This document shows, one piece after another, positions 4,201 to 37,914 of a stretch of DNA of 64,000 bases (the stretch's first letter is position 1; each line of letters starts with the position of its first letter). The notes beneath the pieces were generated by a model that saw only the letters and a program-made list of their open reading frames with translations, did no database searches and had not been told where the DNA came from. The stretch is from positions 25,854,001 through 25,918,000 of the forward strand of contig OZ004609.1 of assembly GCA_963924565.1 (NCBI GenBank), written 5' to 3'. The translations under genes were made by a program, and so were the position numbers. Source of the DNA: Ascidiella aspersa (taxonomy: Eukaryota).

Positions 4201-4290
4201 TAAACTGTGTGTGTATTTTTAGTCTTAAGTTTATGTGTTTTGCACCTGGTAAATAGCATAACAGTTTGGTTTTACAAATGTCCAGCAGTC

Positions 4291-4327
<37 letters not shown>

Positions 4328-7300: not shown

Positions 7301-10300
7301 ATTTCGTTTCGACCGCCTGCTAAACGACACACACACACATCATTTTTTGCGCCTGAGTTTAGGCCATCACCATGTGTTCGAAATGTCAACATTTCCAATT
7401 CTGCTGGCGCGCCGTGGAATTTACCTTTAAATATGGCCGCCTGTAAAATTGAACTTTTTTGTTTAGCCTTTGTCATTGACAATTGAAGGTGTGGCATGCC
7501 TGTGATCGACTGTAGTGGTACTGATCAAAAATGCTACAAACAAATTTTTAAGAGTAAAATATTTATATTTTTTGGGAGGGAGGCTTGGCCCATGTGCCCC
7601 CCCTGGCTACGCCTATGCATCCAATCTTGTTTAGTTGTCGCTTGTACAACCTGTGTGCGAACGCGCAGTCGTGAACCAATACACTACTACATAATTTAAA
7701 GACTCACTTGCCGCTGTTGTGTTTCTTACGTATTTCTAAGGCACCCGAACGCGGCTTTCACATACTAAAAATTATATTTGGCGAAAAACTGTATAAAATA
7801 TATCGCGTTGTAACTTTTGGTTAGTTTTGATTATGTAGGTATCTGCGAGCTCCGATTTAGATCTAAACAGTAACTGGTGTTCAACATTTGGGCCTGGGTA
7901 AAAAAAAGTTAAATGGCTGTAACCATGCTTTACTTACAACGCCAGACTACGGCCTCACAACCGTCCAAGGCGAACCGAGTGGAATACTTTCAAAGAGTCC
8001 AGTCACTTTATGCCGACTTCCAACAAAGGAAAATTCCCCACAATATATCCCTGGTCGTTATGCCCACGCGCTGTCCGCTCCTCATTTTTCGGATGGTACC
8101 ATATGCCCCAGCGAACCCTCCCTCCCACCCACTTCACACTCCTTCTACTGTACGTGTATGTTGCTTCAGGGAAGTGCTCGAGTTCTACGACAACAGCGAC
8201 GTCGATCACGTGACCATAGGCTTCGCCAATTCGTCCCTGGAACAATCCTACCAGGGAAGTTGTGAGCTCGAGACCAGGTCGGACCTTCCCATTGAAATGT
8301 GTGTATCGGCACGCTACAGAATCTTCGTGGTGAGTTGGTGTTGATGGGATTTTCTACAAGGGATCGGTGACGTTAGTTAGCTGCGATATTGCGAAATAGC
8401 ATTAACGGGCAAAATTGTCGCAAGTTTTCTTCGAAATCCTTGCCTGGTGTCACCTCAGCATCCCATTATGCGCGATTGGTTTGTTTATAGGCAGGATGGG
8501 TTTTATTCTTTAATAATCTCAATAAAAAATTGCAAATTCTAGATTTATATTTGCTTGCCGTTTATAAAAAGGCGTGCCGATTTGGTGAGTATATCCAACT
8601 AGCGAAAATAAGCTTAAATCTCGTGGCTGCCCTTTCAGGCTTATTTGGTTTATTTTCAGGCTTATTCTTTTTTACATTTGAGGTACAAAGAGTAAAGTTT
8701 AAGGTTGATTTGCTTTCAGAAAACAAAAACGGTACCCCGCTTTTAAGACACCACTTAAAGGTGTATACGCGCGATAATAGGCACGCGCACTTCTTGGGCG
8801 GGAACCGACACGTTTTTCAGTAGCACTTGCGCATTGTTGTTCATTAATCAAAACAAACAGATCGGGTACACGTAAACATCCGTAGTGCGAACGCGATAGC
8901 CTTGTAGAACAACTTGTATTTACGCAGGGAGTGCTGGTATCCACACAGTTAAAGCGAGACCTGTAAAGCAATTTGACAAGCTCAACATTTCTAAAACTCC
9001 GTCTAAATTTAACAACATATCATAAATTATACATTAGTGTTTCTCCAACACCAATTTAACGGGAGTGAAAAAACTATTTTAAAACAAGCAAAGATCATAA
9101 ACCATTACTTTATTTCGGGCCCATGGTTACTGACGTATAACTAAAGTGTTTAATCTTCATCAATAATTATGCCATACTAAAATTACGACTCTCTCAAAAA
9201 AAACAGGTCTATTTTTATTTTTCAATTCTAATTGGGGTTGCTCACAGAACAGCAGTAAATGAGATGGCTGCGAATCAACTGGTTATGTTTTGTTTGTGTT
9301 TCTTTTCCCTGTCGACCTTCTTTAAGTTTATAGTTTTTTACGCGGAATATTTTTTTTACGTATACATAAGCGATGTAGTGGGAGCAGACATGATTTCCGC
9401 GGAATTTCCTATAAACAATAATCAAAGTGATAATTTAAGCATTAATGGACTGTCGTTGCCAAATCTGCCTGCAATTTGATAACTGTAGTATCGGAACGAG
9501 AACGGCACCTCGAACCAGTGTTTTAGACCGGGTTACCATACCGTGCTTATCTGTAAGGTATGCGGCTCCGAAATAAAATCCTGGATTCGCACCCGTGCTT
9601 ATTTAGGGTAACCCTGGTTATAGGTTAATCGAAATCCGTTCACGTTTTAACCTCGTTCGGCCTCATCCTAAGTTTTACTTTGCCGAAATTCCTTCTGTTG
9701 ATAAAATCGCGGCTCTTCTTCCAGGACCTGGTCGCCGCATCCCTGGTGACGGTGCTGGTCTTCGTGGCTTCCATCCTCCTACTCGCCTCTCCAGCATCCG
9801 ACGTCTCGTGGATCGTGACCTTTGTCATCCTCTTCGCCTTATTGGTGAGTACTTTCACCTGCGCTCTAGTGTAGTGTTGTAATGACTTAAGTCAATGTCA
9901 TTTGCAATTAAGTCACTGTTTTCAAATGACTTGACTTGACTTGACTTTATTTTTCGGGGCAAAATGACTTGACTCGACTTAAGTGTTTTAGACAAATGAC
10001 TTTACTTGACTTAAGTCTTTTAGACAAATGACTTGGGTTCAAATTATGTGTTTTTATTAAGCGTTTTTTGTATAATTGGGTTATTTATTCTAATGCTTGA
10101 CTGGACTTAAGTCAGTTAAAAATGACTTGTTCACAACACTGAGTGTATATGAATTGATTTTTAGTTGCTAGATTTAAGACATTTTAAGATAGTAGTATGT
10201 TGTTATCGTACATTACGACGATGTTTGTTTGTTGTATGTTGTCGAATCGTGCGTTTTTGCGCTCTTTTTTATATATCAACGCTGTATAAGCGCATTCAGA

Positions 10301-13300
10301 TGCATTCTTCCATCCATACTTGGCCGTGTCAATTTCTTGCAGTGGCGGTTTAGCGCGCTACAAAGAGCTAAATTAACCTCCAGTGAATTTTATTATTAAT
10401 CGTGTACCACTAAATGCGGTTTGCCACTTATATGGGATGAAAACCGTTTAAGCTTAGAACGTTGTTAACGGAAAACGTTGAAACTGCTAAAAATGCGTTT
10501 GGATTGCAAACCCTGATTACACCAGTCAGTAAGTTTGCTCATATTTATCCAGGCTACTTTCTGTGTGCTGTCGGCGCTCTACGTGTACGGCAAGTCCGAT
10601 TTGACCGGTACACCTCGATCCATTGCGGGAGCACTGGCCAACTGGGAGCTTCGGTAAGATAACTTTGCTTGTGTTACTACAAACTTATTTGACTTCCACT
10701 TACGTTTTTTACGCTTTTTAGTGTTTTTTATTTTTGTAAAAGCGACAACGTTTTTTGCCTTATTTAAAACGTGGTCCATTGTGTTTTTTTCCTTTTAGTG
10801 TTTATGTGGTTTATATATGTTTTGTTCGCCTACAGTTGCAATAATATTGCCCTGAAGAAGATTCCCCACTATGTAGTCGAAACGTTGGTATTTTAATTAA
10901 ATTTACAACTTTACAGTTTGAACAATGCATTGCAGCAACTGTATATTCCTTTTAATTTTTGTGTGTTTTTTACCATAACTATACTCTGCTCAGTGGGTAA
11001 AAAACGGAGGCTTACAATAAAAACTGATTCCGGGTCAACATTGTCGGCCAATCTTCTAATCTAAACCAAGCTTATACGTATGTCTTGCCGCAGGAACGTG
11101 TGTCATTTGTTAACACCAAAAATGACAGTTATATATCGCGCCTCGCCCGTTTACAGTTAGATCGAATTGTTTTATCGAGCGGCGATGTGCTATTCCTGTT
11201 CCAGGCGTTCGATCGAAGCTCAAATTAAACGTTCATCCGCACATAATCGACGGCTGTACTTTTGGAAATCTGTGTTGATTGCATTCCAACCTTCCGCGAA
11301 TTTCGAAGTTCTTCCAAGGCCAATAAAATCGCTTGAGCCGAGCGCAGCAATTTGCTTGCTAATTGCCTCCCAGAACATATCCAAAACAGGATTTTATATC
11401 TTGATAATAAATTGCAAAGCCAAAAAGGTTGATTAAGACGTTTCGATACGAGCTTGTATCATCTTCAGTTAATGTCGAGATGATGTCGATCTACTCGACC
11501 TTTTTGGCTTTGCAATTTATTTTCAAGCTACATTACAGATCCGTGCATAGTCTACCCAAGGATTTTATATATTCCGTAATTTCGGTTTATGTTTTATGGC
11601 ACATGCGAACACAGCGGCTTGCTTTTCTTCCACTGTTCCTTAGGGTTTTTTCCTATTTTTTAATCTACCTTTTACCGGCTAAGGTTTTTGCTAAACCTTA
11701 GCCTTATTTAAAAAAAAGTTTGCCATTTTATTTTTTCATAACTTTTTGGGGATGTACAACTGCATAATTCTCCACGCACCGAAAGCCTTGTAGTTCGGAT
11801 GAATGACGTTTTAAAATATCTCTCTTTGTTTAAGGTTTTGCTTTCTTCACTTTTTGTCCTCTGATTGTTTGAGGCATTTATCCATGTATGTTGTCTTTAA
11901 TATAAGTGTACTAATTTAAAGTTTAAGTAGACTCGCCATTGTTGTTTATTTGGAGGTATACGGTTTAAATTAGTCAGTTTAAATCAGTGGTTCTCAAACT
12001 TTTGGAAATTAGTCGCTGTCTATTATTAGTTATTCAACAACTGACCATTGTAAGGTGCATAGGTTTTAAAATAAATATTAGTTAAAACTTGTGTAAGTCG
12101 TGGCCCATTTAATGTCTCTCAACATGTTGTGCCTTCTAGCTCAAATTATTCTATGAACGTCATTAAGCGTATATGAACGTCATTAAGGGGGTCTCTGAAA
12201 TAATAATAACAACAACAAATCGAGATTAACTGAAAACTATTGACCACGGTTAAAAGTGCTTGTTTTAAATTTAACAGTACTGTCCACTCTTTCCCACTCC
12301 TCCAGACATGTGATCGGAGGACTCCTGCTCCTCTTTCCGGCCGCCGTCGTTTTCTCTCACTACGCCTGCCAGCCGCTCGGCAGCGCCCCCTCGTGCTCCA
12401 ACTACGTCATCGTGGGAGCGGTCGTCATCCTTCACTTTCTTAACTTCGACCAACTCAACACCTGGATGCGGTGAGTTGTTTGGCTGCGGTTTTGCGTTAA
12501 CTGTAAAAAAACTACCCGTCAGTCAAGTATTGTTGCGAGTTAATGTAAAACGTTTTAAATGTTAAGTACAATAGTTTTTCAACAAATAGCCAATATTTTC
12601 AGGCGAGTAAGTGAAAAATAGTAACCCAATTAAAGTGGTCATCACAAGACTAATTATGCTCAACCCCACCTACTATTGTATCACATTCACAAGCCTAGGT
12701 CGCTAATCACATCTCCAGAAGTGTTAAAGTTAAACGTTGTTGTTGTAAGTCAATGTGAGTTGTTTTAAATGTCAAGTACAATTGTTTTCAACCAATAGCC
12801 AAGGCGTTCAGACAAACTTTAAAACTAGTTTCATGTTTAATCCCCTTCCCACAACAGCCTTGCAATAGAGGCCATGGTAGCTATTAACCTTTTATGCGGC
12901 CACTGGTAACTTTTTTTAGGGTGGACATTTTGTACAACTACACTGTTAGCGACGATGGTTAAAAAAGTTTTTTCTTGTTTAAAGCCGTACCTAATCATTC
13001 GCCGAATACGCCTCTTTCACTTTCTAAAGCGAAACAGGCTTCCTTCTGTTTTTAGTGCAACTTAAAAAAAGGAGTGGAAGCAACCGTTGCCCCATTTTAT
13101 TTTACCTGGTGACAAATAAACGCTGATATTGTTTTGTCTTTATCAGTACAGAGGGTCGCTTGTTTACATAATTACAAACGCTTGCTTTAGAACTGACTGT
13201 GTACGCGAAAGTTCGATAGGGTATATTCCGCTGAAATCCGTCACGCCAAACGACGTGTTTTCAGAATTGGTCTCTGATATAGGAATTTTTTGCGCACGAA

Positions 13301-16300
13301 CGATCTGAAAACGCGTTCGACATACTCCGGTTTTCTTTCGTTTCATGCTTCACGCTCCAAAGCGACTGCAAGAGTTATCAATGTAACCAAATTCCGCATC
13401 ACTCTCCAGCGTGTATAACCGGGTCCTAGGAAAATCCCGTCTGGTGATAACTCGTTCTGCAAAAATCAGTGACCCGCGGCCCACTATCTGGTGCAAATCA
13501 AAAACACTCAATTGGGCGGTTTAAGACGGCAACAGCCTCGATCGAACATTTGAGACAGCACGGCGATTTTGTTAATGCTGCTAAACGGATAACAGACCAA
13601 AATGTACACCAATTTTGAAAAATCTATCTAGGTACACTTGTCACGCAGTTTGATAATATAATTATTAATGACTATAGTTTATGGGGTTCGTTGGTTAGCG
13701 ACTGAGTTGCCCATGATTTTATAGCCTTTGACGAATTTACGGCGTGGTGTACGTGACCCTCCAGCCGAATCAAGTTATCGCGCACCATGTGGGTACAAAC
13801 AACACTGCCACGCTGTCATGTTCCGATCACGCCTGTCAGCAGCCCGCCGACGCAAAACGCCCTCGTTGGATTACCTCTATCGATTCCGGCCCGCCATTGT
13901 GTATGCATAATGCGATTTGACGTCGATTGTCGTCGGCGCCCCGATTCATTACGACAAAGAAAGGACCCGAACCCGGGTCCCTTCGCTCCGCGCCAAACCG
14001 GGATTCTTTCTCCCGTGCGGCTAATCACTCCGGCCTCGTCCCAACGGCATTGGTGCAACTCGTTTGCCGCGGTACGCGACCCGCTCATTACCCGCGCCGG
14101 CGTCCCGTAATAGCTTCGCTCATCAAATATTCATCCTATAATACAAAACTCTTTCGCCAAAGCGCCCAGAACGCATTATCGTTTATAAGCCCCGGGTCGA
14201 TGGCCTTTGCCGCTTTTGCTATGTAGAACTGGTCCTAATTTACCTGCCGAGGTTTTTGTTCGGCTTGAATGCGCGAAAGGCCTGCGTTCTGTCGCGCTGG
14301 CTCGTACGCTAAGTCGGCGATCTAACTTTGTTGCGATTTATTAGAGCGTAAAGCCCAATGCGTTCAGTTTTGATGTAAACACCTATAACAATGTATGCAA
14401 CCAATCAACCACGTTAACAGTCCAACTCATTTAATCGGCCCTTCATGCGTTTGACAACGTTGTAGAATTATCAGGCTTGTTTATCGTAATTGACGCTTGA
14501 GCTGGTTTGAATACAGGGATGAAGAAACCTAGACACTTGCCTTCACCCCGTAAAGTGTATTCTCGGTTTAGGCTGCTGGTTTTGCGAAGTTAAGAATTCG
14601 AAAGGAGGCAGGTGGCCCCAATTTGCGTGGAAATTCCGAGAAATCCTTACTGCACGCAACCTGGGCTTCCTTCTATTGCTGCATCGCTAAAAAACCCGGG
14701 GTATAAATTCGGCAAGCCGCACGTTTCTTCACGCAAGACTCGTCGCCCGGCATTGCCGCAGCTCAAGCAAGCGTTATCTGGACGCGAACAAGCTTTGCGT
14801 TTCAAACGCCGAAATTCCACGCGTCGGCGATTTTATGAGTGCCGCGCCCCTACCACTTGTTGGTGCTGTGAATAAACGAGTAGCCAAGGATGGTTGTCCG
14901 CGGCTATATAGATACTTTTGGAACTAGCCCATTGCCGTTTTTTGAACAGACAAAGTCCATAACGCGCCCCAGTTATGGCTAACGGCACCCCTCAAAAATA
15001 ATAAATAGATTTTCGGCACCCCGACTGAAATTTTTGTTGAATAATTTACTGAAATGTCACTATAAATGCAATTGGCACAATCAACCTAAAACACGAAGGA
15101 AAAGGTCATTTGATATAATGTTTTTTAATCGTACACAAATAGTTTTATCAAGAAGCTTACCAATTGAGCAAAAATCGGATTCTTAAAAAATCTCAAAATA
15201 CCTATCGGCACCCTTGAGCATTCGCGCCGCGGCACCCCGGTTAAGAACCACTGCCCCAAAATATGCCCGGAAATAACCAATTGTTGGTGTGCTCATGTGT
15301 CATTTGAAAGGCGGGGTTTGTTCAGAATTTTTTTTTTTAATGAACAGTTCGTTTTATTTGATGCGCCAGCAGCCCGTCATTATGGTTTCCCACCCAAGAA
15401 GCACTGGAAATGAAACAGAAAATGACAGTCTAACGATAATGTGCCATAAGTGTTGTTTTGTCGGCTTGTGATAATCCTATTGCGACCCCGGCAGGCTTCG
15501 GAGCATTCGATATTTTCAGGCACATAAAAGGATTAAAAAAAGCTTTAGATTTTTTGAAATTGTTATTCAGAAAAAGGTAATCGCAGTAATGTATTCAGAA
15601 AAAGGTAATCGCAGTAATGTGTTGGTCAGCGTTAGCGTTTTCTAAACCAAACCTGACCCAATTATGTTTTGCAACACTCCTACACCTTAACGCATTGGGT
15701 TTCTCATCGTATATTTATTATTATAACCGTAATAAAATTGTACCATGGTTGTAGAGTAGCTTTATTAGCAATAATAATAATCTGCATAAAATTAACAATT
15801 TACTAAAAGAAGTGATCAATTTTCCTACGTACACATGACCTTAGTATAGGGTTTTAATATGTGTACATTACATTCCCATGTTCAGCTTGGGCATATCTTC
15901 AGGCAAACTTTCCTATTTTCTTTACAAATGTTTATCGTCGCAATGAGCCTACTGTCGCCTAAACACAACATCGCCATTTGCCGCCTGTAATTGTTCCTCG
16001 TACATTATTTGCGGCCGAATTAGCTGCCACATCGTCTCCGAACGAGACGCCTATAAATAATTAAAATAGCCGAACAAGTAACGCTTTCACACCAGCAGCG
16101 CCACCTCGCTTTTCTCGGCTATGCGAACTCTTCGCTCGTTTAAGGATTCGCAATTTCTGGAAAGACTTTTGTGGTATGACAATAAATCGTGTTTTGTTTG
16201 CTTGGCAAATATGCAATCCGTTTTGCCTTTGCCTTTTCGTAATAATAAAAGCAAAAAAGGTTTTAGGAACCTGGCCGCTATGCGGCCGAACATCTGTCGT

Positions 16301-19300
16301 ACTATCCCTAATGAAAAATACGCTTATTTTTTTAGAAAAAATAAAATTATACTCATTAACTACCTTCTAAATTCATATATATATATTTTTTTTAAATGTT
16401 TGCAGTTTGGATCATTACAAGCCGAGTATAGTTTTTTTACAGTGCTTCTTAAACTTTTTTTAGTTTTGTTCAACCCTAGCATCTATCTCCAGATTTCATT
16501 CACCCTTGTCTCATAAAAAATGAAAAACTTAAAATTTATTTTGTTTTTGGAAATTATCACCTGTTCACTGAACAGCTTGAACACCCGGAATATCCGCCCT
16601 GCTCGCAATCTATTGTATCCAAATATCCATTTCTGCAGGTTCACCCTTTCACCCCTTTTATTTGGTTCACCCAGGCAAAGTTTGTATTTACCCTGGGTTG
16701 AACCATTCACCTGATTGAGAATCACTGGTTGTTATATACAGTTTTGTCCAAAAACAAACGTTTGGGCTTTTAGAATATTCCATAATGGATATCTTGGCAC
16801 TGAGGCCAACGATACAAACGAGACTTGCGCTTTTTGCAGGACGGCGCTGGCAGCCCTGATCGCCTTGGTCATCCTGGCCCTGGTCTACGCCAACCCTTGC
16901 ACATCCACGGCTGGCGCACAGACGGGTTCGGGCAACTCGACCAACGGAAGCAGCGCTCGCCTTTGCCAGTTCCTAGACAAGGAGGCAGGCCAGCGCTACG
17001 AGTTCATAATCGACCTCGTGTTGGCCGTCGTCTTCGTCTTCTTTCTCAACCGACACAACGAGGTAAACCATCGAGCCTTCAATGGCGTTTGATTTTTCCA
17101 GCTAAGTATTTTAGGGAGACTTTGATGGAGTTGGCGTTGACACTGCACTCCTAAAATGAAGCTACTGAGTTTTCACACGAGCTTTGCATGTCGTTTTACG
17201 TTATTTTGTTTGAAAGATTGAGGCATTGTCGATCTTATAATGTAGCTGGAACGCGATATGCATATCCTAACGCTTTATACTCAATATACACCTATATGAT
17301 AAGATAGTTTTACCCCCCCCCCTCCAGGGTATTTTTTTAACCAGAACAAAATGCTTAATCTCTAACGAAACGTAACAGCTCTTATAAAATTAAAATAAAA
17401 AAATAAAAAGTATTATTATAACATATTCATTGGAGCAATGTTTATATATTTGTAGGTGCGGACCAACATTTTCGCAAATGATACTAGTACTCGTTCTGTA
17501 ATTTAGGAAGGTATCGCACTCTGTTACAGGATTGTCATAAGTCTTTGGATCTTTAAAAGTCTTTCAATGTTTTTAATTGATTTAAAAGTTTTTCCGAAAC
17601 GTCTTTGAATTTATTTTTTGTGCAGCTTAAGTCATGTATTTAGAAAGTACCAGTAAAAAATAATTTGATTGTTTTGACCATGGCATTTGCCCTGTTTTGT
17701 TTTCAAATTATATTAAAAAAAGAACGTCCAGCGATCCAATTTTAGGTCTTTAAAAACCTTCAAATTTTCTTAGAAAAGTCTTTGAATGCCTTTGAATTAT
17801 AAATATGTGTGGTAACCCAGTGTTAACAAACCTAAACTGTGTTACTGGAATGCAAACTGAAAATGTAAAAATGAAGATCTCCTCGCCCTTACACGTTAAT
17901 AACGGCAATGACTTCAAACTAGCAATATACTTTAGACTTCCTTGTCTGAGTCGAAATCAGTCATTTATATGTTCTAGTTATTAATCAGACACGAACGTCT
18001 AAAATATAATGCTGTGTTACTGGCGGTGTATTTTGCGTTTTCTTAATATAGTTTTTTCTTGCATGTAAGAAATCCAGTGCTTGAAAAAACGCTCTGCACA
18101 CCCACGTTCGGCACCTAGGTGTGTCCGTAACGTAGCGGGCGTTTCCGTCGAGTAAGCGCACCCGCCATAAATCATCCTCATGTTGTTCCTTCTCACAGCT
18201 GGGCTACCGCCTCCACTACAGCGGTGAGCGGAAGGTGCAACGCATCCGTGAGGAGACAGAGACGCAGCACACCTACGTCGAGTGGCTGCTCGAGAACTTT
18301 ATACCGAGCCACGTCAGGGGCGCCATGAAGGTAAATTGCTGCTGCTCCTGTTTGGGGGTTTGCGGATTTAAATAAAACACACGCGCTTCATGTATTGCCA
18401 AGTGTTACGGTTCAGGCTGTTGAGAACTGAAAGTTAACAACTTGCGCCATGTGCTTTTCGCTGGCAACATATTGCGAAATTGGAAAGGAAAACAGTTACA
18501 TTGTTGCGTCATGAACATGGAAATTAAATGACGTTTCTCGCTGTAACAGTCAAGCTTTTAACAGAGGATCTCGTTTTTAACGTTTTAAAGCGCATGACGT
18601 TTATGTAGAAAACTTGACTTTACGGTCCATGTTTGATAGCCTATAACTATGCCGCAAAAAATAAATAATTGCTAAAAATGTTCTCTCTCGTCTAGTATAT
18701 TATGTAGCTTAACTAGTGTTATCACGTCCAGGCTCGCACAATTTTTCCTCTCTTAGATTCGCATCAGTGCAAGTTAAACAAGAATAAAACAAAATGCATT
18801 TTCATTTTTGCGGCCCGTTTCTTCGCCACTGCTCGTACAAACTCGCAACAATTCGGTTCGTCAAATAAAGGTTTTACGTGTTTGCTTGCAGGACAACCTG
18901 CTCTACTCGAAGACGCACAAGAAAGTAGGCGTGATCTTTGCCACCATCGTCAACTTCAACGAACTATACGAGGAGGATTACGCCGGCGGGATGGAGTTCA
19001 TCCGAGTCCTCAGCGAACTTATAGGCGAGTTAAAAACCCTTAGATCAGGGGTTCTAGAGCTTTATTTTACCTCGGAAATCAGCACGGTTGCCAAGCAATT
19101 TTCAGATATGACGTCAAAATGCCGTAATTATACAAATAGACTTCAGATATCTGCTGATTTCGAGCTAAAAAATGTGAAAGTGTAATGGAGTCTAGATTCA
19201 GTGCAAAACCGTTCTACTTTTAGTTAAATTCTTTGATAAAATTTGATTACTTCTTGAATATACACTAATATTATACACTAATATTTCCATTAGGCCCGGA

Positions 19301-29123: not shown

Positions 29124-32100
29124 CTATTTTGCCCCTAACTTGTAAAATGGTCTGCCCGAGATCCACGACTCGTCGTCGCGAAGCGGCCGCGGAGTCGACG
29201 GACTAGCTGACGTCATCGATACCCTGGATGACGTAGGCGACGTGAACGGCGTCAGCTGGCTGGACTTCAACAGAGAAGGCGGGCTTTGTTCCTTGTCTTC
29301 CTCGTTGCCCAACAAGCCCTGGTACTTGTCGAAAATATGCAAGCGCTCTAAAGCCTGGACAGCGTCTCGTTTTTTGCTCTTCTTCGTTTCCGCATCTTGC
29401 TTCTGCTCATCTTCATCTTTCTCCTCGGAGGATGACGAATGGGTCAGGTCCCCGTCGCTCTCGCTTACTTCGATCTCGACCACCTCGTACTCGTCCGGAT
29501 CGTACTCCTCGTCCTCATTCCACTCGATGACGTCATCGCTCTCGCTCGACGTGACGTCATTCGATTTCGCAGCGGAAGATGACCTCAACGATGACGGCGT
29601 CGCCACTTCCGGCGTCCGCGGGAGAGAACGCGTCGGCGTGTGATCTCCGTGCACCTGGGGTGACTTTGGTTGTTCAGTCGGTGGGATGACCAGCTTGGGT
29701 GCAACTCTCGCCCTGTTCGTGTTAACGTCTTTCGCTGGTGCCGGTTCCTCTCTTATGAGCTCCTGCTGCTTTTGGGCCCTTTGCTTTGTGGCGCTCTCCT
29801 GCTCCGCCTCGGATTCGGTGGCCGAGAAGTCGCTCGCTATCGTTTTGCCCTGAACACGATGAAGGTTGTGCACAATCCGAGATCAAAGGAGAGTTTACTG
29901 ACACTGTGTTAAAACTATTCACGTCGAAGTAATAATGATTTTTATCGCACTATTTGATCACTTATGCCGTTGGAGGCAACTTTGAAAACAATCCGTCGAC
30001 AAGAATCTAGAACCACAACATACCTAACTTACCTTTTTTAGGTTTAGCATCGGACTTTCGGTGCGAATTGAGTCCATGAGTTGCGTTCTGAGATCAACTG
30101 GCGGCTTGGCTCGTTTTGCAGTTTTGTGCGGTTTCGGTTGCGTCTGCTAAAAATATATTACACGTCATAGATATATAGCATTGCAATTGAGGGAAAACGT
30201 AAAAGGACATTTTTCAAACGAAAGGGCGTTCGTCTGCATTTTAAATCTTACCTTGCCCGTTTTGTTTTCTCTCTCGGGCTCACCAGTAGCTAAGTTTTGA
30301 AGTCTGTTTGAAAACCAGTTTTCCAGCATATTCAATTCGTTTGGATTCATCTGGCCCAGAATTTTCTGAAACAAAACATCTGTCAAATACGCAAGTAGAT
30401 AGAATGCAAGTTTTATAAAATTTCAAAAGTTTTTTTACTTTTTGTATGAAGCTATTCAATCTGTGGCTGTTCAGAAATGACACATCTTATTGTGTCATAT
30501 CAGTTGTATTTTTGCAGTTCTATTAATCACATTTCTAAGTCAAAGCACAAATGTTTATTCTGACGATCATGGTGTTAATGTGTGCACCTGCAGATCCTTG
30601 TCCTGCACTGATCCGGTTGCATCAAGTAACACGCATTTTTTCTTCATGTTCTCCAATCGCTGGGCTTTTTCTCTTCTGTACCATTCGCTGCTGGTCTGGC
30701 GACGAAGTGTTGGCCTAGTGGGCTAAATATACGCAAATGATTGATTAGTTCATCATGGGAGGCGGCTAAGCTATAACAAAAAAAAATAAACTAGGTGTAC
30801 ATTATAAAACAAAAAATTCTTATATTGGCCCAAAGGATGACTACGAAAATGACTGAGGCTTGACAAGTTAACCTTCATTCAGTGTTGCTCATTTAACCCA
30901 ATTTCGCCTAGTGAGTTAGATACAAAGTTCGTAAATAGTTATAATACCAATGCAAACTGAATATGTGAAAAAGAAGATATCTCCTCGCCCTAATGCACGT
31001 TAATGACGACAATGACTTCGAATGGTAGCAAAACAGTATAGACTTTCTTGTTTCAGTCAAAATCAGTCACTATAGGTTCTAGTTTATAAAAGAGAAATAT
31101 ATTTCGCCAATCACGGCATCATCAGTCTCTAACAAACGAATACAAAATAAAGTAAACACGTAAACCAGGTGGTAGAAATTAAAAGTCATGAATAGTAGAA
31201 ATTTAAAGTCATTTTTTATAACACCAATCAATGATTTTTTGGACTTTCGTTGCAAGGGTAAAGCGATGTCGTTCGCTACTTTTGCATTTTATAACCCCAA
31301 TTCAAACAAACCCCGGGATTTTCAACATACATTCATGCGTTGTTCAGCCAGTCTCTTCTTTCGCACTTGGTCCATGTTTCTGGTCAGAGAGTTAGATGCT
31401 GTCATGCGCAAGCCCGGGTTGGCAAACTGATAGCCGAACCGTAAGATCGTGCTGCGTCACAACAACAAGATTTTAAGCAATCATTACGCAATATTTGAAT
31501 GGAGAATTTCGAACATGCTGGAACAGTGTCTGACATAAATTTTAACAGTTTAATCACTATTTTTACATTATCAAAAATGTTGTCTGTTCGATAACAAAAT
31601 AACATCGTTATAAAAAAAAATTATTTAACTTTGACCTATTCTAATTTGGGCGAATTTTACATAAATTTCATGATATAAGTTTTTCGGGCTCAGCTTAATT
31701 CACTTTGCCCGGTGTTTCAATGGTAATCATAAAAAGTTGTTTAGTAGGCAAGTTAAGGAATACGCAACCGCTATGATTCGAGAGCCCAACATAGAAAATC
31801 ACTTTTCAATGTCGACAATCCCGAAACTGAACATCACGTCATTCGTTGCGGTGAAAGATTTCAAGCAGGCATTTACTCACTGGTTGTCGCGCAGTATCTT
31901 GCCAAACTCGTGCTCGACATTGGCACCGAAGATGTGTCGTTGGTTGTCGATTCTCACTTCGCGAAGGCTCGCGTTTTTTCGCAGAGCAGCGACGATTCGA
32001 AGCGCGCCCCCACCTGCGCAAGTAATTCCAATTAATCCGTGGCATTGCAGTGTAAGGCGGATAACTTGGTCTTTACTTTGGGTAACGAAATTTGAAATCT

Positions 32101-35100
32101 GTTCGAGTCATAGCCGTTACAAACCTTATAAGTTACAACGCTAGATGGTCTTGGGACAACAGGAAAACAGTTTCTCCTTTTTTAATTTATTTTTAGTTGA
32201 ACCAAATCTTTTAAAAACGAAGTATCTTCATACAAAGGCATGCTTGAGTTAAGGTTAAGTTGTTTTCCAACATTGGCAAATGACAAACACTTTTTGTCAA
32301 AAATATATCGAATGCAATAAATAGCCTAAAATTCAATTTGACTTGTTTTGTACCTGAAACAAGTTTTTCCTTTATAATGTGTTTTACATAGATGTTTTTA
32401 TTAATGAAACTATATTTTTAACGCTTTTCGACCTTCATTCGTTTTGCGTAACTATGAACATGACCAGGTTGCTTGCAATGATTTGTTCAAATATTTTCTG
32501 TTTTTTTCGAACACACCTGTTATGAAGTTGGACTCGACGTTCAGGTTTTCCAGCGTCTTGTTTTTCTTGATCATGGAGGCGAGCGCCCGGGCCGCCTTGT
32601 CTGTCAGCCCTGTGTTTGCCAACAGCAACGATTTCACCTGCGTGTTTTCCTCCATCGCGTCTGCCAGCTCCTCGAAGGCTTCCATCGGAACGTTTTGTAT
32701 GTTGTTCAGATTGACCTGATGCAAGACCAAGGTTGTCAAACTGACATCAATATATTTTCAAGTAACGACAAAATTCGCATTTTAATACAATAAAGTAAAT
32801 TTTAATAGGTTAAGCTCTAAGGAACTAAAGTAGTATTTAGCTGTGAATCACATGCCTTAATTCAAAATGATAGAAGCTTTTCAGCAAGATGTAATTCTTA
32901 AGGAGTTTTTATAAGAGATCTTGGTATATAATGCCACACATATGTAGCAGGAAAAACATTAAGGCTTTTTGTTAGTTTACATAATACTTAACGTCTTCAT
33001 AAGTTTTTTGACATACAAATTAACGAGAAGAACTTTCTGTAGAAAAAAACTTGTTCCACTTGCTATAAAAAATAAGCGCAATCTGCTTATTATTAGTTTT
33101 TTTGGGAAGGTGAGTAAAACCTGTAAACAAATGCATTTTAAACATTTGGTGTGTTGGTTGGCTACAAAAAGAACAACCAGTAATATAAAAGAGAAAAATG
33201 TAAAATTCCTGCTATTTGTGATTACATTTCGAAAAGGTTTTGCTGGCGTTTATTTAATTCGTTTGCATGAGTACAACATATGGCCGAATTGTGAAATAAT
33301 AAGCTCATTATCGGCTTGTGCGACATTAAATTAGGTGTTCTTATCGTTATTTGCAATATTTTCAATTGATCAAGTTGTAGTGCAATACATCAAGGTTTGC
33401 ACATGTACCAAAGTTCCAAACGGTTCGCTCAACACTGGGATTAATTATTTACGTTAGCGTTTTCCGCCAGCACTGCGATTCCAGTCCCGTTTGATCGCGC
33501 CAGGCCAGATCCCATGAGAGCGCGTGCGGCCGAAGATCATCGTTAGCGAGCAGCAGCTGAAGCTGTACGAGTCGCTGTAGGCGCCAGCAGACGCGACACG
33601 CTTTATGTCTATTGCTATTTGGACAGGGTGACTGGGTTACGATTCGCTGAAAGTCGGGCCTGTCGTCCGTTTGGGGTCCGGAAGATGCCAAGTGGTGCCG
33701 GCGCACTTGCGCTAGCTGTCAGCGTATCAGTAATATCGCCAGTTGCGCTGCGTGTCATGTGACTGCCAGAAGACTTTATATGGTTTGAACTTACAGCGTG
33801 TTTTCATAAATAAATAGACACGTTTTAAAAACAATTTGAGCCATCCGATACCTAACCTTTTAACTCATAACGTTCCCTCTTCGTTTTAGTTGAACTATAT
33901 AATGTTTGTTAAATAATAATGTGTTTATATGTCAAGCAGCGGGCCGTGCGTCACAACGTCCGTTTTGCGTCGTGACGCAAACACCCGGAGAGACGCAAAG
34001 GCGCGCGCTAACCTGCAGCGAGCAGCTGCCGCCGAAAATAACGGCAATGACGTCACAAAGCAAAGCGCGACCTGATGCGGTTACCTCCGTCAGACTGGGA
34101 TCGTTCTCCCAAATTCGCAGCAGGGTTTCCTCGACGCTGTTCGGGTTGATTGACAGCTCGCCGATGACGTCGTACGAGGACTCGGCGCTTGTGCTACCCG
34201 CCGTCGTCGATGACGTCATCGTCATGACGTCATCCACTGGGTCCTTTGGCGGCGAGCGCTTCAGTTGGCGGTGCAGGTGGTCGTTGGCCTCGGCCACGGC
34301 GCGGTCGACTCGCTGGTCCGAGTTGACGCTGCCCTCGGAGTCCGCGTCCGACTCGTCAACGCAACTCTGCGAGTTACTGAACTCGCTCTCGTCGTCGTTG
34401 TTGTTGGCCGCTGCTTGCTCCTCCTTTCGCTTGACGCCCTCCGTGATGTGCTTGAGGCTTACGCCGTGCAGAACATCTGGCAGTTTTGCTTCACGCGTTT
34501 CCACCTGGCAAGGCGATGTGGATATTTTTTTTAAACTTAAATTTTGATGAAATAAGCTATTGCTGCTAGGCATAATGTATAACCGAGTGTTGCTCATACA
34601 GCAGTATTATAAACAAATTTTTGATATTTCGTCAAGTGCCTTGGTGAAAACGGAAAGTTTGATTCGTGTTAAAATTCTGGTTTTGAATATACCGATAGAA
34701 TGGTGAGTTGGAATATTCGCGTTAACTAGGTATCTGCGTTTTTTAACGTTTACAAATATTTTATTTGCTTGTTTTTTAGATCAACTATTTAAAATTTGTT
34801 CCAACAAACAAAACGATTATCAAAAAAGGCATATCACTGGCAAAAACTTAACTAAACTTAATAATCGTAAACCTGGCTTTTTCTCATAAAAGAGGTTGGT
34901 TCATGGGCGGGTTCCCAGGGGTAAACAATGCTATAGTAAAAAAGTCCTAGACTATACCCAACAGATAATAAGTAATTCTTTCGCTGCAAAAGTTCTAAAA
35001 TTTATCATAAATCACAAAACGAAAAGTAGAATTAAATTTATGAAACTGTTACAAAATACTGCCTATAGTTTTGTGCAAGGTTTATTCATTCTACATTTAA

Positions 35101-37914
35101 CTACAATCTCTACAAAAACAAAAAATATATTTTCTCGATGCTTTTCCGATACAAGCCTGCATAACCTTAGCAACATGGGGCCTTAACTAATTCTACGATA
35201 GACATCATTTTGAAGCGCAATCAAGGCTCATAATAATATATGTTTGTCAGTACTGTTTCATCTTGTGCTTTGCTAGTAATTGCTACAGTGGGATATGACC
35301 TCATTAATGTACTTACCTTTTTTAAACGGGGCCGGAGTGACAACATTTCTTGTGTGATGAAGTTGGAGTTGACAGGCTGGGCGTCCTTCTTGGATTCCTT
35401 GGCGATCTTTTCCTTGTTGCGTCGCTTAAACAAGGCTGAACTGTTTTTCCTTGTGTATCGCCGACTTACTCCACTGCTGTTTGCCCTACACGTTCTCCGT
35501 CTGCGGATTGATACTTTTTTGTTAAGGGATTGGATAAAATTTAAGCGCATAAAGGTTACTGCGCGCATTTTAAGTTTGATGGATAAACTAAACCATAAAA
35601 GAGCATTACGAAAGACATAAAAAAACATAAATTTTTAGAAAATATACATACGAAAGAGTATGGCTAATAAAATTGGATAACCGGCAAAAGGTTTTCTGAA
35701 AATATAAACAAACAATTGGTAAGTTAACAGTTATAATTAACTATAACAGTCATATTTTTTTTAAATGTCACTAATTAATAAGATTCTACAAAGCACGAAA
35801 TTGAACGATAATAATGAGCACATATTAGAAACTACGCGCGCGCAATTATCCCGTGATAGACATGCTGCCTAGAATTTGTTTTTAACGAAAATTGTATCGA
35901 ATCGGAACTGACATTATCCCTAACCAACACTATAGTGGCATTGCAGTGATATGACGTTGGATTCAACCAGCAGATAAATGGGTTGCACAGCATCCAGTTC
36001 GAACTTACTTGGATCGTTGCTTGACGGCGTGCATGAGCTCATTCTTCATTTCGCCTCCATCCTCACTGCCCTGCTTCCTCAGTCGCTCCCGGGAGCTGGT
36101 CTTGCGCAGCGCCGGCACTTTGAAGACGTGATGCTGACTTTTGCCTGGTGAGAAGATTTGTTTTGGTTAGTCTACTTGCCATTTTAGTGCGCCCTGTCGA
36201 GAGAGATAATTCGCACACCCATACTGCCAGGGTGTTGACAAAAATTGCCTCCCTTGGCGGCACCAGCACCTTAAGAGTGCTCGGTTGTCGGACGACTGCT
36301 AGGCCTGCACCAATGCTGACTTACCGCCCTTTACCTAATATGCATTTTGCTATTCATTCGTTTCTCCTAGGTAAGACCACCGTTTGATAAAAAAGAAAAA
36401 ACAAAACTACAGAGTACTAGCAACTTCAATGTGGCAAAGCAGGAATGCTATAGAGGACATGTTCCAAATCAACTAAATTTTTTGATAACAGCTTTGTGAA
36501 ACATATTGTGAACTGTTATTTGATCTTGTCGCATTGTAATTTAACATTACCTTCATTTTAATCGATTGGCTGCTAACCACTAACAAAGTCGAAAAAATAC
36601 CCTAGGTTATCCATCTTACTCTTATCATATTGCTCAAGCACACACTCAACATATCTTAGTTTATTAGTTCAATAATGTCGTAGTGAAAGTTAGTTAAATT
36701 TATTACACAATCATGTTGCTGGAATGGATGACACAGTCTCGAGACGTACCTGTTTTCTTCTTTTGAATGTCGTGCGATGGGCGTCTTTGTTTTGCGAATT
36801 CTGGCACCTTAGGAGTCTGATCTGCCTGATGGGAAGATAAGCGCCTTGATCGATCTCTTGTCTAGCGAACAAAAATTATACAATTAGTCTCATTTGAAAA
36901 GGCATGTCAAACAGCTGATTTCGTCCCTTTAGACCGTTTTAAAACTTTTTGTGATTTTTTAACATTTGTGCTTTTTTAACAATTGTGTTAAACCCCTTTA
37001 AAACAATTGTTAAAAAAGAATAAAAGTCTTACTACCACCAAGCGCTGAGTTGAATTGTTAAACGTATAAACTTTAAAAACAAAATGTTACCCAAGCTAAT
37101 AACTGGCATCATCTTTATTATCCCTGTTCAAATCAAACCACCAATAATATGTTTAGAGTGAGGAAGTCTTTACATTTGTACCGCTTTAAATGGAGTGGTT
37201 AATCGTGGAAACTGTAAAAAAATGTAAAAAATAAACTAGACGGGGATTAGAATAAACCATCGTACCTCCTCAAGATGTTGCGACGGTGTCGTGTCTTGCT
37301 CTTCGCACTCATCATCAGATTCAGATTCTTCACTTTCCGAAGAGGAGGAGTAGTTGTAGCCGTTGGCCGCCTCGGGTTGACCTTCCGGTATCTTGTTTAA
37401 CACCTCCCTGTCGATTTCTCCCTGCATTGATTCAGTAGTAAAAACTTGCTTTAAATTTTATCTTTGACTTTATCAAGCTCTGTTCAATTGTTTTGTTATA
37501 CATAAATTAGATTTAGGCCGTTTTTATTATAGTTACATCAAACTGATTATGAAAAACGATTCAAGGACGCAGTTTACCGATTTTTTATATTATGTTTAAC
37601 AAATGCAGTTTTCTAACTAAATGTTTTCGCCTAATTGTATGCTAGGCAGCCTTAGGTATGGTACGATTGGTGTGGTATTGTCTGACATGTGAGACTACAG
37701 CTATCCAATGTATTTTCACTAATTATTTTTTTTAAACGCAATGAAATGCCACTTTAATTCTGCATTTATATTTTTACAATTGCCACGTGATATGTTCTCA
37801 TACCTCAAGCTGCTCAAGTTCTTCTGCGGTTAGATTGCACAAAATCTCATCTTCGTCAATTTCTCTGTATTTCTCCAGCATATGTCCATAACCATCGCCT
37901 CCGTTTGAAGACAT
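29124..37914 (-). CDS. TMOD: Tropomodulin/leiomodin-family actin pointed-end regulator, about 881 aa (Tmod N-terminus, LRR domain, WH2-like motifs, acidic tail)
   Basis: Phase-consistent exons (5' to 3'): 37914-37804, 37421-37266, 36861-36750, 36144-36009, 35485-35317, 34504-34085, 32715-32517, 32013-31881, 31451-31331, 30722-30588, 30365-30252, 30146-30033 (NAGNAG acceptor), 29849-29124; total 2646 nt. N-terminus LEKYREIDEDEILCNLTAEELEQLE; LRR domain [31 protein letters not shown]...LENLNVESNFITG...VRIDNQ...ILRFGYQFANPGLRMTASNSLTRNMDQVRKKRL; C-terminal WH2-like DLRTQLMDSIRTESPMLNLKK. Confidence 0.9.
30949..31210 (-). mobile_element. Penelope pLTR-like remnant (T-rich segment, hammerhead, 140-nt downstream segment); partial copy at 17849-17978
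   Basis: 30949-31084 (aatgcaaactgaa...tctcctcgccct...aatcagtca...gttctagtt) aligns by eye with 17849-17978 and lies next to the hammerhead at 31093-31130. Confidence 0.5.
31093..31130 (-). ncRNA. Minimal type I hammerhead ribozyme in intron 9 of the Tmod/Lmod-like gene (sense orientation)
   Basis: Minus strand reads agaga-CUGAUGA-U-GCC-gugauu-GGC-GAAA-U-AUA-uuucu: intact core, 3-bp GC stem II, 5-bp stem I with one G-U pair, palindromic AUAU mini stem III. Confidence 0.65.

Follow-up and report, generated by a model that had tools for sequence, protein, structure and literature searches.

The segment 11400-11558 of the window (the whole stretch of 64,000 nucleotides that was analysed) is a 159-bp insertion that very probably represents two 5'-truncated ends of a Penelope/Poseidon-type element, placed head to head within a 12-bp target-site duplication, and that likely arose when a protein of the element cut both strands of the target and one short cDNA was made at each. 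The two arms, the tail on one side only, the duplication, the parental reading frame and the copy number were observed directly. The features tested identify 11400-11558 as a truncated and inverted insertion of an EN-bearing Penelope-like element (PLE), an architecture that has already been published (PMC8557442, PMC3846280) and of which it is an ordinary example, one of hundreds in the genome. On its own, the single locus is of small importance. Family statistics are modestly useful for asking how PLEs form head-to-head ends and what role their hammerhead has; the testable constraints obtained here are the strict one-sidedness of the tail, a duplication of 12-13 bp and a pile-up of ends upstream of the uncut hammerhead.

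Architecture of the insertion

A sequence-only reading of this region had delimited a 128-bp unit with pairing ends. Its start at 11400 stands, but the true end lies 31 nt beyond 11527, at 11558, and the tail and the 12-bp duplication had been missed (Table 1). The tail-bearing arm corresponds to the beginning of the PLE reading frame, with an ATG at 11480, and its frame is similar by eye to the N-terminus of the intact ORF of a related element, L258. The tail-less arm has lost 20 nt at about 11428/11429, including the start codon of the ORF, and the two arms overlap by 1 nt at 11475. The inverted repeat described earlier was recovered between 11400-11432 and 11495-11527 with 31 of 33 nt identical; it measures 33 nt because the private 20-nt deletion cut down an arm-to-arm repeat about 20 nt longer. 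Likewise, stem I of the hammerhead does adjoin the arm, as had been noticed, but only because this copy lost those 20 nt. Relative to the natural copy L093, 11400-11558 carries four substitutions and one deletion, which, together with the perfect duplication, partly bears out the suggestion that the insertion is young.

Table 1. Coordinates of the insertion, its hammerhead motif and related upstream sites
Feature	Position	Strand	Remarks
Left target-site duplication copy	11388-11399	.	12 bp, identical to 11559-11570
Right target-site duplication copy	11559-11570	.	12 bp, perfect
Tail-less arm	11400-11475	-	Parent -39 to +57 from cleavage site; alignment to natural copy L093
Tail-bearing arm	11475-11558	+	Parent +5/+6 to +88; alignment to L093
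31-nt tail	11528-11558	+	One arm only
Stem I	11473-11469 with 11436-11432	-	5 bp
CUGAAGA core box	11468-11462	-	Followed by one unpaired U
Stem II		-	GAUAC/GUAUC; loop of 6 nt
GAAA	11444-11441	-	CG next, then GUC site
Predicted cleavage position	Between 11437 and 11436	-	At GUC site
Pyrimidine run + YAG sites	L093 4370-4378; L258 near both hammerheads; window 10825-10837

A genome search with 11380-11575 returned 2156 candidates; in the 40 that were scored, matches stop sharply near 11559, and this end is fixed while the middle is variable. As for an empty site, no joint skipping the insert was present among 15 of 225 joints, at low flank depth and amid crowding repeats; contigs of one run (X1) span both insert junctions by fewer than 31 letters.

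Adenylate cyclase exons occur on the plus strand on both sides of the insertion (1481-1789 and 18778-19185; best matches AC9, E = 3e-25 and 1e-11), placing it in an intron, so the minus-strand ribozyme is antisense to the host gene, as the sequence-only reading had it. Such a position between AC9-like exons, together with a strong fold on the host strand, is what a hairpin or ribozyme co-opted for regulation of the adenylate cyclase gene would show. Co-option is nevertheless extremely improbable, given that the ribozyme is antisense to the gene, that hundreds of similar copies are found on both strands and that the RNA depth on the insert flanks is 0-3.

The hammerhead motif and its predicted folding

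The hammerhead announced for this locus was confirmed on the minus strand at 11432-11473, with its core, stems I and II and GUC site in place. It has the features of a type I minimal motif, namely CUGANGA, GAAA, a UH site, helices I and II and a palindromic 15.2-16.2, and its stem III consists of the palindrome ACGU alone, with no loop. In the window, a strict minimal-hammerhead pattern matched once with stems of 5+5 bp and three times with 4+4 bp, and in none of 200 dinucleotide shuffles. Recognition by a hammerhead descriptor, proposed earlier as a check, failed in Rfam: for 9000-14000 at E <= 5, no hammerhead family was found and four weak unrelated matches were returned. Rfam miRNA matches were rejected as arising by chance from the hairpin.

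The structure predicted by folding is the long hairpin rather than the ribozyme, with z = -10.5 on the plus strand and -9.6 on the minus strand and none of 200 shuffles equally good. Stem I is predicted to pair with a probability of 0.01-0.02 within the insert and of 0.04-0.07 in an isolated 42-mer; the ribozyme had been called intact, which holds for its complete sequence but not for its fold, this stem staying below 0.1 in both settings. Among 65 aligned family rows (one duplicated and a few misaligned), stem II and stem I show one double change each, and two uncompensated stem I variants, each marking a subfamily, occur in 13 and 7 of the rows. Covariation of stem II, expected earlier among copies, was not found within the family in this alignment, but in three other hammerhead motifs of the genome the stem II sequence differs and pairing is retained. 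The maintenance of the fold with different stems in other families suggests that selection worked on the masters and not on the stubs.

The motif resembles the metazoan PLE hammerheads described in PMC4209133 in its type I core, 5-bp helix I, unpaired base before helix II, G10.1-C11.1 pair and palindromic 15.2-16.2 without loop 3, and also in that most motifs are single and dispersed, with some opposite-strand pairs 100-700 bp apart; its helix II has 5 bp, compared with 7-8 bp in the Schistosoma motifs. For the motifs treated in that paper, monomer cleavage was not found and dimer cleavage was low, and the motif at 11432-11473 is predicted to cut itself only as a pair. The hammerhead would be a passenger derived from the pseudo-LTR, and its cleavage would require a second copy or the protein of the element; given this requirement and an orientation away from the host transcript, it likely has no function at 11432-11473.

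The parent element

The exact hammerhead core pattern matches the genome 529 times and an exact 21-nt tail pattern 534 times, the reversed control giving no match in either case. Longer copies extend upstream to a frame with a reverse transcriptase (RT), a DKG motif and a terminal GIY-YIG-type motif, so the proposed linkage of a multicopy hammerhead to such a frame was borne out. The RT domain (PF00078) was detected in L063 (E = 2e-9) and L254 (E = 1e-7). The GIY-YIG-type motif, seen in translations, fits the definition given in PMC8557442 (two cysteines between GIY and YIG; R, H, E, N). Searches of Pfam, the PDB and homologues gave the endonuclease no name, the homologue search returning two proteins, neither of them named; the endonuclease was assigned by its motifs. 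In translations of L091, L093 and L256 inspected by eye against PMC8557442, DKG is present and the CX2-5CxxC linker between RT and endonuclease is absent. With its DKG motif and no such linker, the parent would on these sequence characters fall in the Penelope/Poseidon clade.

None of 124 RT candidates has an intact frame of the parent family; the frame is broken in every copy viewed, with open stretches of 216-433 aa in the best of them. An intact related family, L258 (G000:C3:20857344-20860901, minus strand), has an 848-aa frame that is 53% identical over the last 203 aa and is bordered by a hammerhead at both ends. In the parent, the hammerhead is situated about 100 nt past the stop codon, and in copy L093 it lies in the pseudo-LTR, between the end of one frame and the start of the next. 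From the anatomy of the parent and of L258, the end of the stub corresponds to the point where the next frame starts, which is also the case in PAc and Pen2a. Coverage by DNA reads drops from about 14,800 close to the 3' end to about 50-100 over the endonuclease region. The deleted form of 11400-11558 is single-copy in the genome; the lack of a PLE parent, which had been named beforehand alongside a single copy among the refuting conditions, is contradicted by the parent described here.

Family anatomy and the origin of the arms

Of the 534 tail matches, the first 100, on contig C1 and part of C2, were taken as a tail-anchored sample; the hammerhead was not a criterion, and removal of nine segmental duplicates left 91 copies. 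These are mainly head-to-head or single arms: an opposite arm is present in 63 and absent in 28. None of the 63 two-armed copies carries the 31-nt tail on the second arm, and 56 of the second arms terminate at +45 to +68. Target duplications of at least 10 nt were found in 50 of the 91 copies (35 of them of 12-13 nt), compared with 3 of 270 shuffled flank pairs, and are absent in the other 41. The median copy length is 175 nt. Joints vary widely between copies, either arm may be the longer, and many joints skip sequence or hold additional bases; repeated joints also have matching flanking duplications and, on that account, resemble segmental duplicates.

A non-autonomous retrozyme- or MITE-like element, itself transcribed, cleaved and re-inserted as a unit of 128-159 nt, would account for the shortness of the copies (85 of 91 are at most 300 nt long), for a read depth of short copies two orders of magnitude above that of frame-bearing ones and for locus L002, where the arm-to-arm joint is identical. 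It is, however, highly improbable: the window form occurs once among widely varying joints, L002 differs at subfamily-diagnostic bases in a manner fitting an independent event, arm ends avoid the cleavage site, the locus holds no tandem repeat, and the tandem array of hammerhead monomers that is the hallmark of animal retrozymes in bioRxiv 10.64898/2026.07.22.740005 was seen in 0 of the 91 tail-anchored copies. The non-autonomous ribozyme element, one of two identities put forward in the sequence-only reading, was set aside for its unique form, its differing joints and the likeness of the repeated joints to segmental duplicates; the other, a very short PLE footprint, is upheld by the head-to-head arms, the one-sided tail, the duplication and the RT-bearing parent frame.

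Within a PLE origin, the inverted arm might instead stem from a single molecule that folded back and primed itself, as proposed in PMC3846280. Some joints do fall on RNA palindromes, either stem II or ACGU (L018, L009, L012 and L153), and short snap-back sequences are found in a few. Fold-back would, however, place the end of the second arm at the start of the first or at random, contrary to the preference for +45 to +68, and it fits poorly with a tail that never enters the second arm, with either arm being the longer and with joints that skip sequence or add bases; we consider it unlikely and retain the priming of a separate short cDNA on each target strand.

Two further observations were made on the distribution of copies. 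Ten of them (L189-L192 and L194-L199; G000:C1:37.7-38.5 Mb) form two same-flank sets, pointing to large segmental duplications near the C1 end. In L233-L252, 23 matches, 20 of which were viewed, continue beyond the point where the tail usually ends and into the frame, most of them stopping after a further 20-40 nt or so, possibly at a third, rarer RT start site.

Pile-up of 5' ends upstream of the ribozyme

Many arms that extend through the hammerhead stop shortly beyond it. Among tail arms reaching -33, 26 of 41 stop at -33 to -45, a rate of 0.073 per nt compared with 0.008 elsewhere (p = 5e-17, interval chosen post hoc), and 17 of the 30 second arms reaching -33 stop in the same interval (p = 3e-9, likewise post hoc), the rate of 5' ends there being about six to nine times that elsewhere. 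The cleavage site itself shows no excess, with four tail-arm and two second-arm end events. The mode of 5' ends in a larger mixed sample is -38 to -40 (39/139), and the hammerhead arm of the window copy ends at -39. The 26 piled-up tail arms comprise 14 that run into the opposite arm, four that run into the duplication and eight that do neither, some of which could reflect alignment limits. Since the ends pile up 33-45 nt upstream and not at the cleavage site, the templates were likely uncut and likely had their start a short distance ahead of the ribozyme. The literature searched, largely the main text of open-access papers, contained no account of a pile-up of this kind.

We lean slightly towards the view that the pile-up marks the 5' end of the RNA. 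In 8 of 16 arms the base before -39 is a G (p = 0.03); setting aside two for which the other arm accounts leaves 6 of 14 (p = 0.11), which makes for a weak cap test. The CA at -40/-39 is initiator-like. For Penelope, an internal promoter within the pseudo-LTR is reported in PMC2377424. An RNA 5' end at -39 was not seen in one RNA run.

A stop of the RT or a processed RNA end, whether through a bound protein, a dimer of hammerheads or a 3' splice site located at -42/-41, is a less probable but substantial explanation of the same interval. A pyrimidine run followed by CAG lies just upstream in both subfamilies, the evidence from the cap G is weak and, in the D. virilis Penelope, an intron ends at the 5' side of helix I (PMC4209133) and the start is placed further upstream (PMC2377424). 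On the other hand, only one locus among 80 hammerhead contexts without the parent upstream motif matched upstream sense sequence, a leader common to more than two of the 80 was not found, and a structural stall would be expected 3' of the fold and not past its 5' side. A spliced or trans-spliced template was rejected as the cause, the upstream sequence not being shared in the 80 contexts, as was complementarity to stem I, the ends of the partner arms being spread from +54 to beyond -100.

In the single RNA run, element reads of either orientation are present, their depth per letter being about one fourteenth of that of the DNA, and they are absent from the endonuclease stretch of L093 (3900-4067); this pattern fits passive transcription. 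A pile-up of read ends indicative of cleavage was not seen on the window or the parent in this run, a weak test, as an ordinary RNA-seq library would lose small and circular RNAs.

Comparison with known elements and proposed mechanism

Insertions that combine an inverted pLTR with a tail are described for EN+ PLEs, including Pen2a of Adineta vaga, in PMC8557442 and PMC3846280. As there, 11400-11558 consists of a 5'-truncated copy beside an inverted truncated copy, with a short target-site duplication, a tail of 30-40 bp on one end (31 bp both in Pen2a and here) and a pseudo-LTR that takes in the first codons of the frame. It differs in its extreme shortness, with no coding body, and in its private 20-nt deletion, and duplications in this family measure 12-13 bp in contrast to 8-10 bp. 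It shares with the animal non-LTR retrozymes, as presented in bioRxiv 10.64898/2026.07.22.740005, a non-coding nature, a type I hammerhead and derivation from a PLE; retrozymes are, however, head-to-tail tandem repeats, whereas 11400-11558 comprises one head-to-head unit, whose joint is unique. Identity with a retrozyme was rejected for want of head-to-tail tandem hammerhead units at the locus and in the tail-anchored sample.

The closest biochemical parallel is PAc, the Poseidon element of Anolis carolinensis. According to PMC11167929, its protein cuts and extends both target strands, two internal RNA start sites bound the tail, uncut RNA serves as template and RNA reads ending at the cleavage site are absent. 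Here too, the hammerhead is at the junction of pLTR and frame, two internal RT starts would bound the tail and, in one run, RNA reads do not end at the cleavage site; cutting and extension of both target strands on an uncut template would likewise apply to 11400-11558. The long frame begins 10 nt past the cleavage site, whereas that of PAc starts at stem II; the tail is delimited by +57 and +88, counted from the cut, and among 124 RT candidates an intact master was not found. In vitro, the start site of PAc did not differ between strands in that paper, so its behaviour alone does not predict strict one-sidedness.

For 11400-11558, we propose that the element protein would cut both target strands and that each end would prime one short cDNA. 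The cDNAs would have started inside the RNA, one at +88 and the other at about +57, in keeping with the in vitro behaviour of the Anolis element, and their ends would be joined with an overlap of 1 nt. Because the arms overlap in the template, two RNA molecules or two passes would be needed. The arm with the hammerhead would halt at -39 as the RNA begins there, a step to which we give marginally better than even chances. An RNA start at -39, together with priming inside the transcript close to its 5' end, would yield stubs of about 100-130 nt.

More tentatively, and with somewhat less than an even chance, Penelope insertion may follow a fixed rule in which a dimer of the protein works on two uncut RNAs and starts one cDNA at the distal site and the other at the proximal site, never both at the distal, with synthesis running to the transcript start just before the hammerhead. 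Were this so, genome sequence by itself would suffice to locate both the promoter and the start sites of the RT from the ends of stubs, and the stubs would show that cleavage by the ribozyme is not used in defining templates.

Other hammerheads, PLE families and repeats

A second minimal hammerhead, at 10848-10890 on the plus strand, lies 550 bp away in a different repeat family, for which 324 genome candidates were found and 40 scored; the core is kept, stem II is longer, and the motif probably belongs to another PLE family. A third, at 31091-31130 on the minus strand, has CUGAUGA, a GCC/GGC stem II and an AUAU palindrome. In L093, a degenerate hammerhead-like stretch at 4287-4325 (CUGAAGG ... 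GAAAC) overlaps the subfamily A stop codon, some 100 nt before the main motif, and is missing from subfamily B. A pyrimidine run with YAG, similar to a 3' splice site, precedes the core by 9-21 nt in three families; copies that had been spliced were not seen.

Other PLE families, L258, L259 and L262-L264, have open frames of 816-880 aa and are candidate active elements; four copies from such families stand in tandem on C9 with a spacing of about 2.67 kb. Elsewhere in the window, an imperfect 32-nt tandem repeat with inverted partners at 9924-10121 is possibly a MITE or a minisatellite. Opposite-strand frames at 29124-35634 (minus strand) resemble, by eye, a tropomodulin/leiomodin-type gene.
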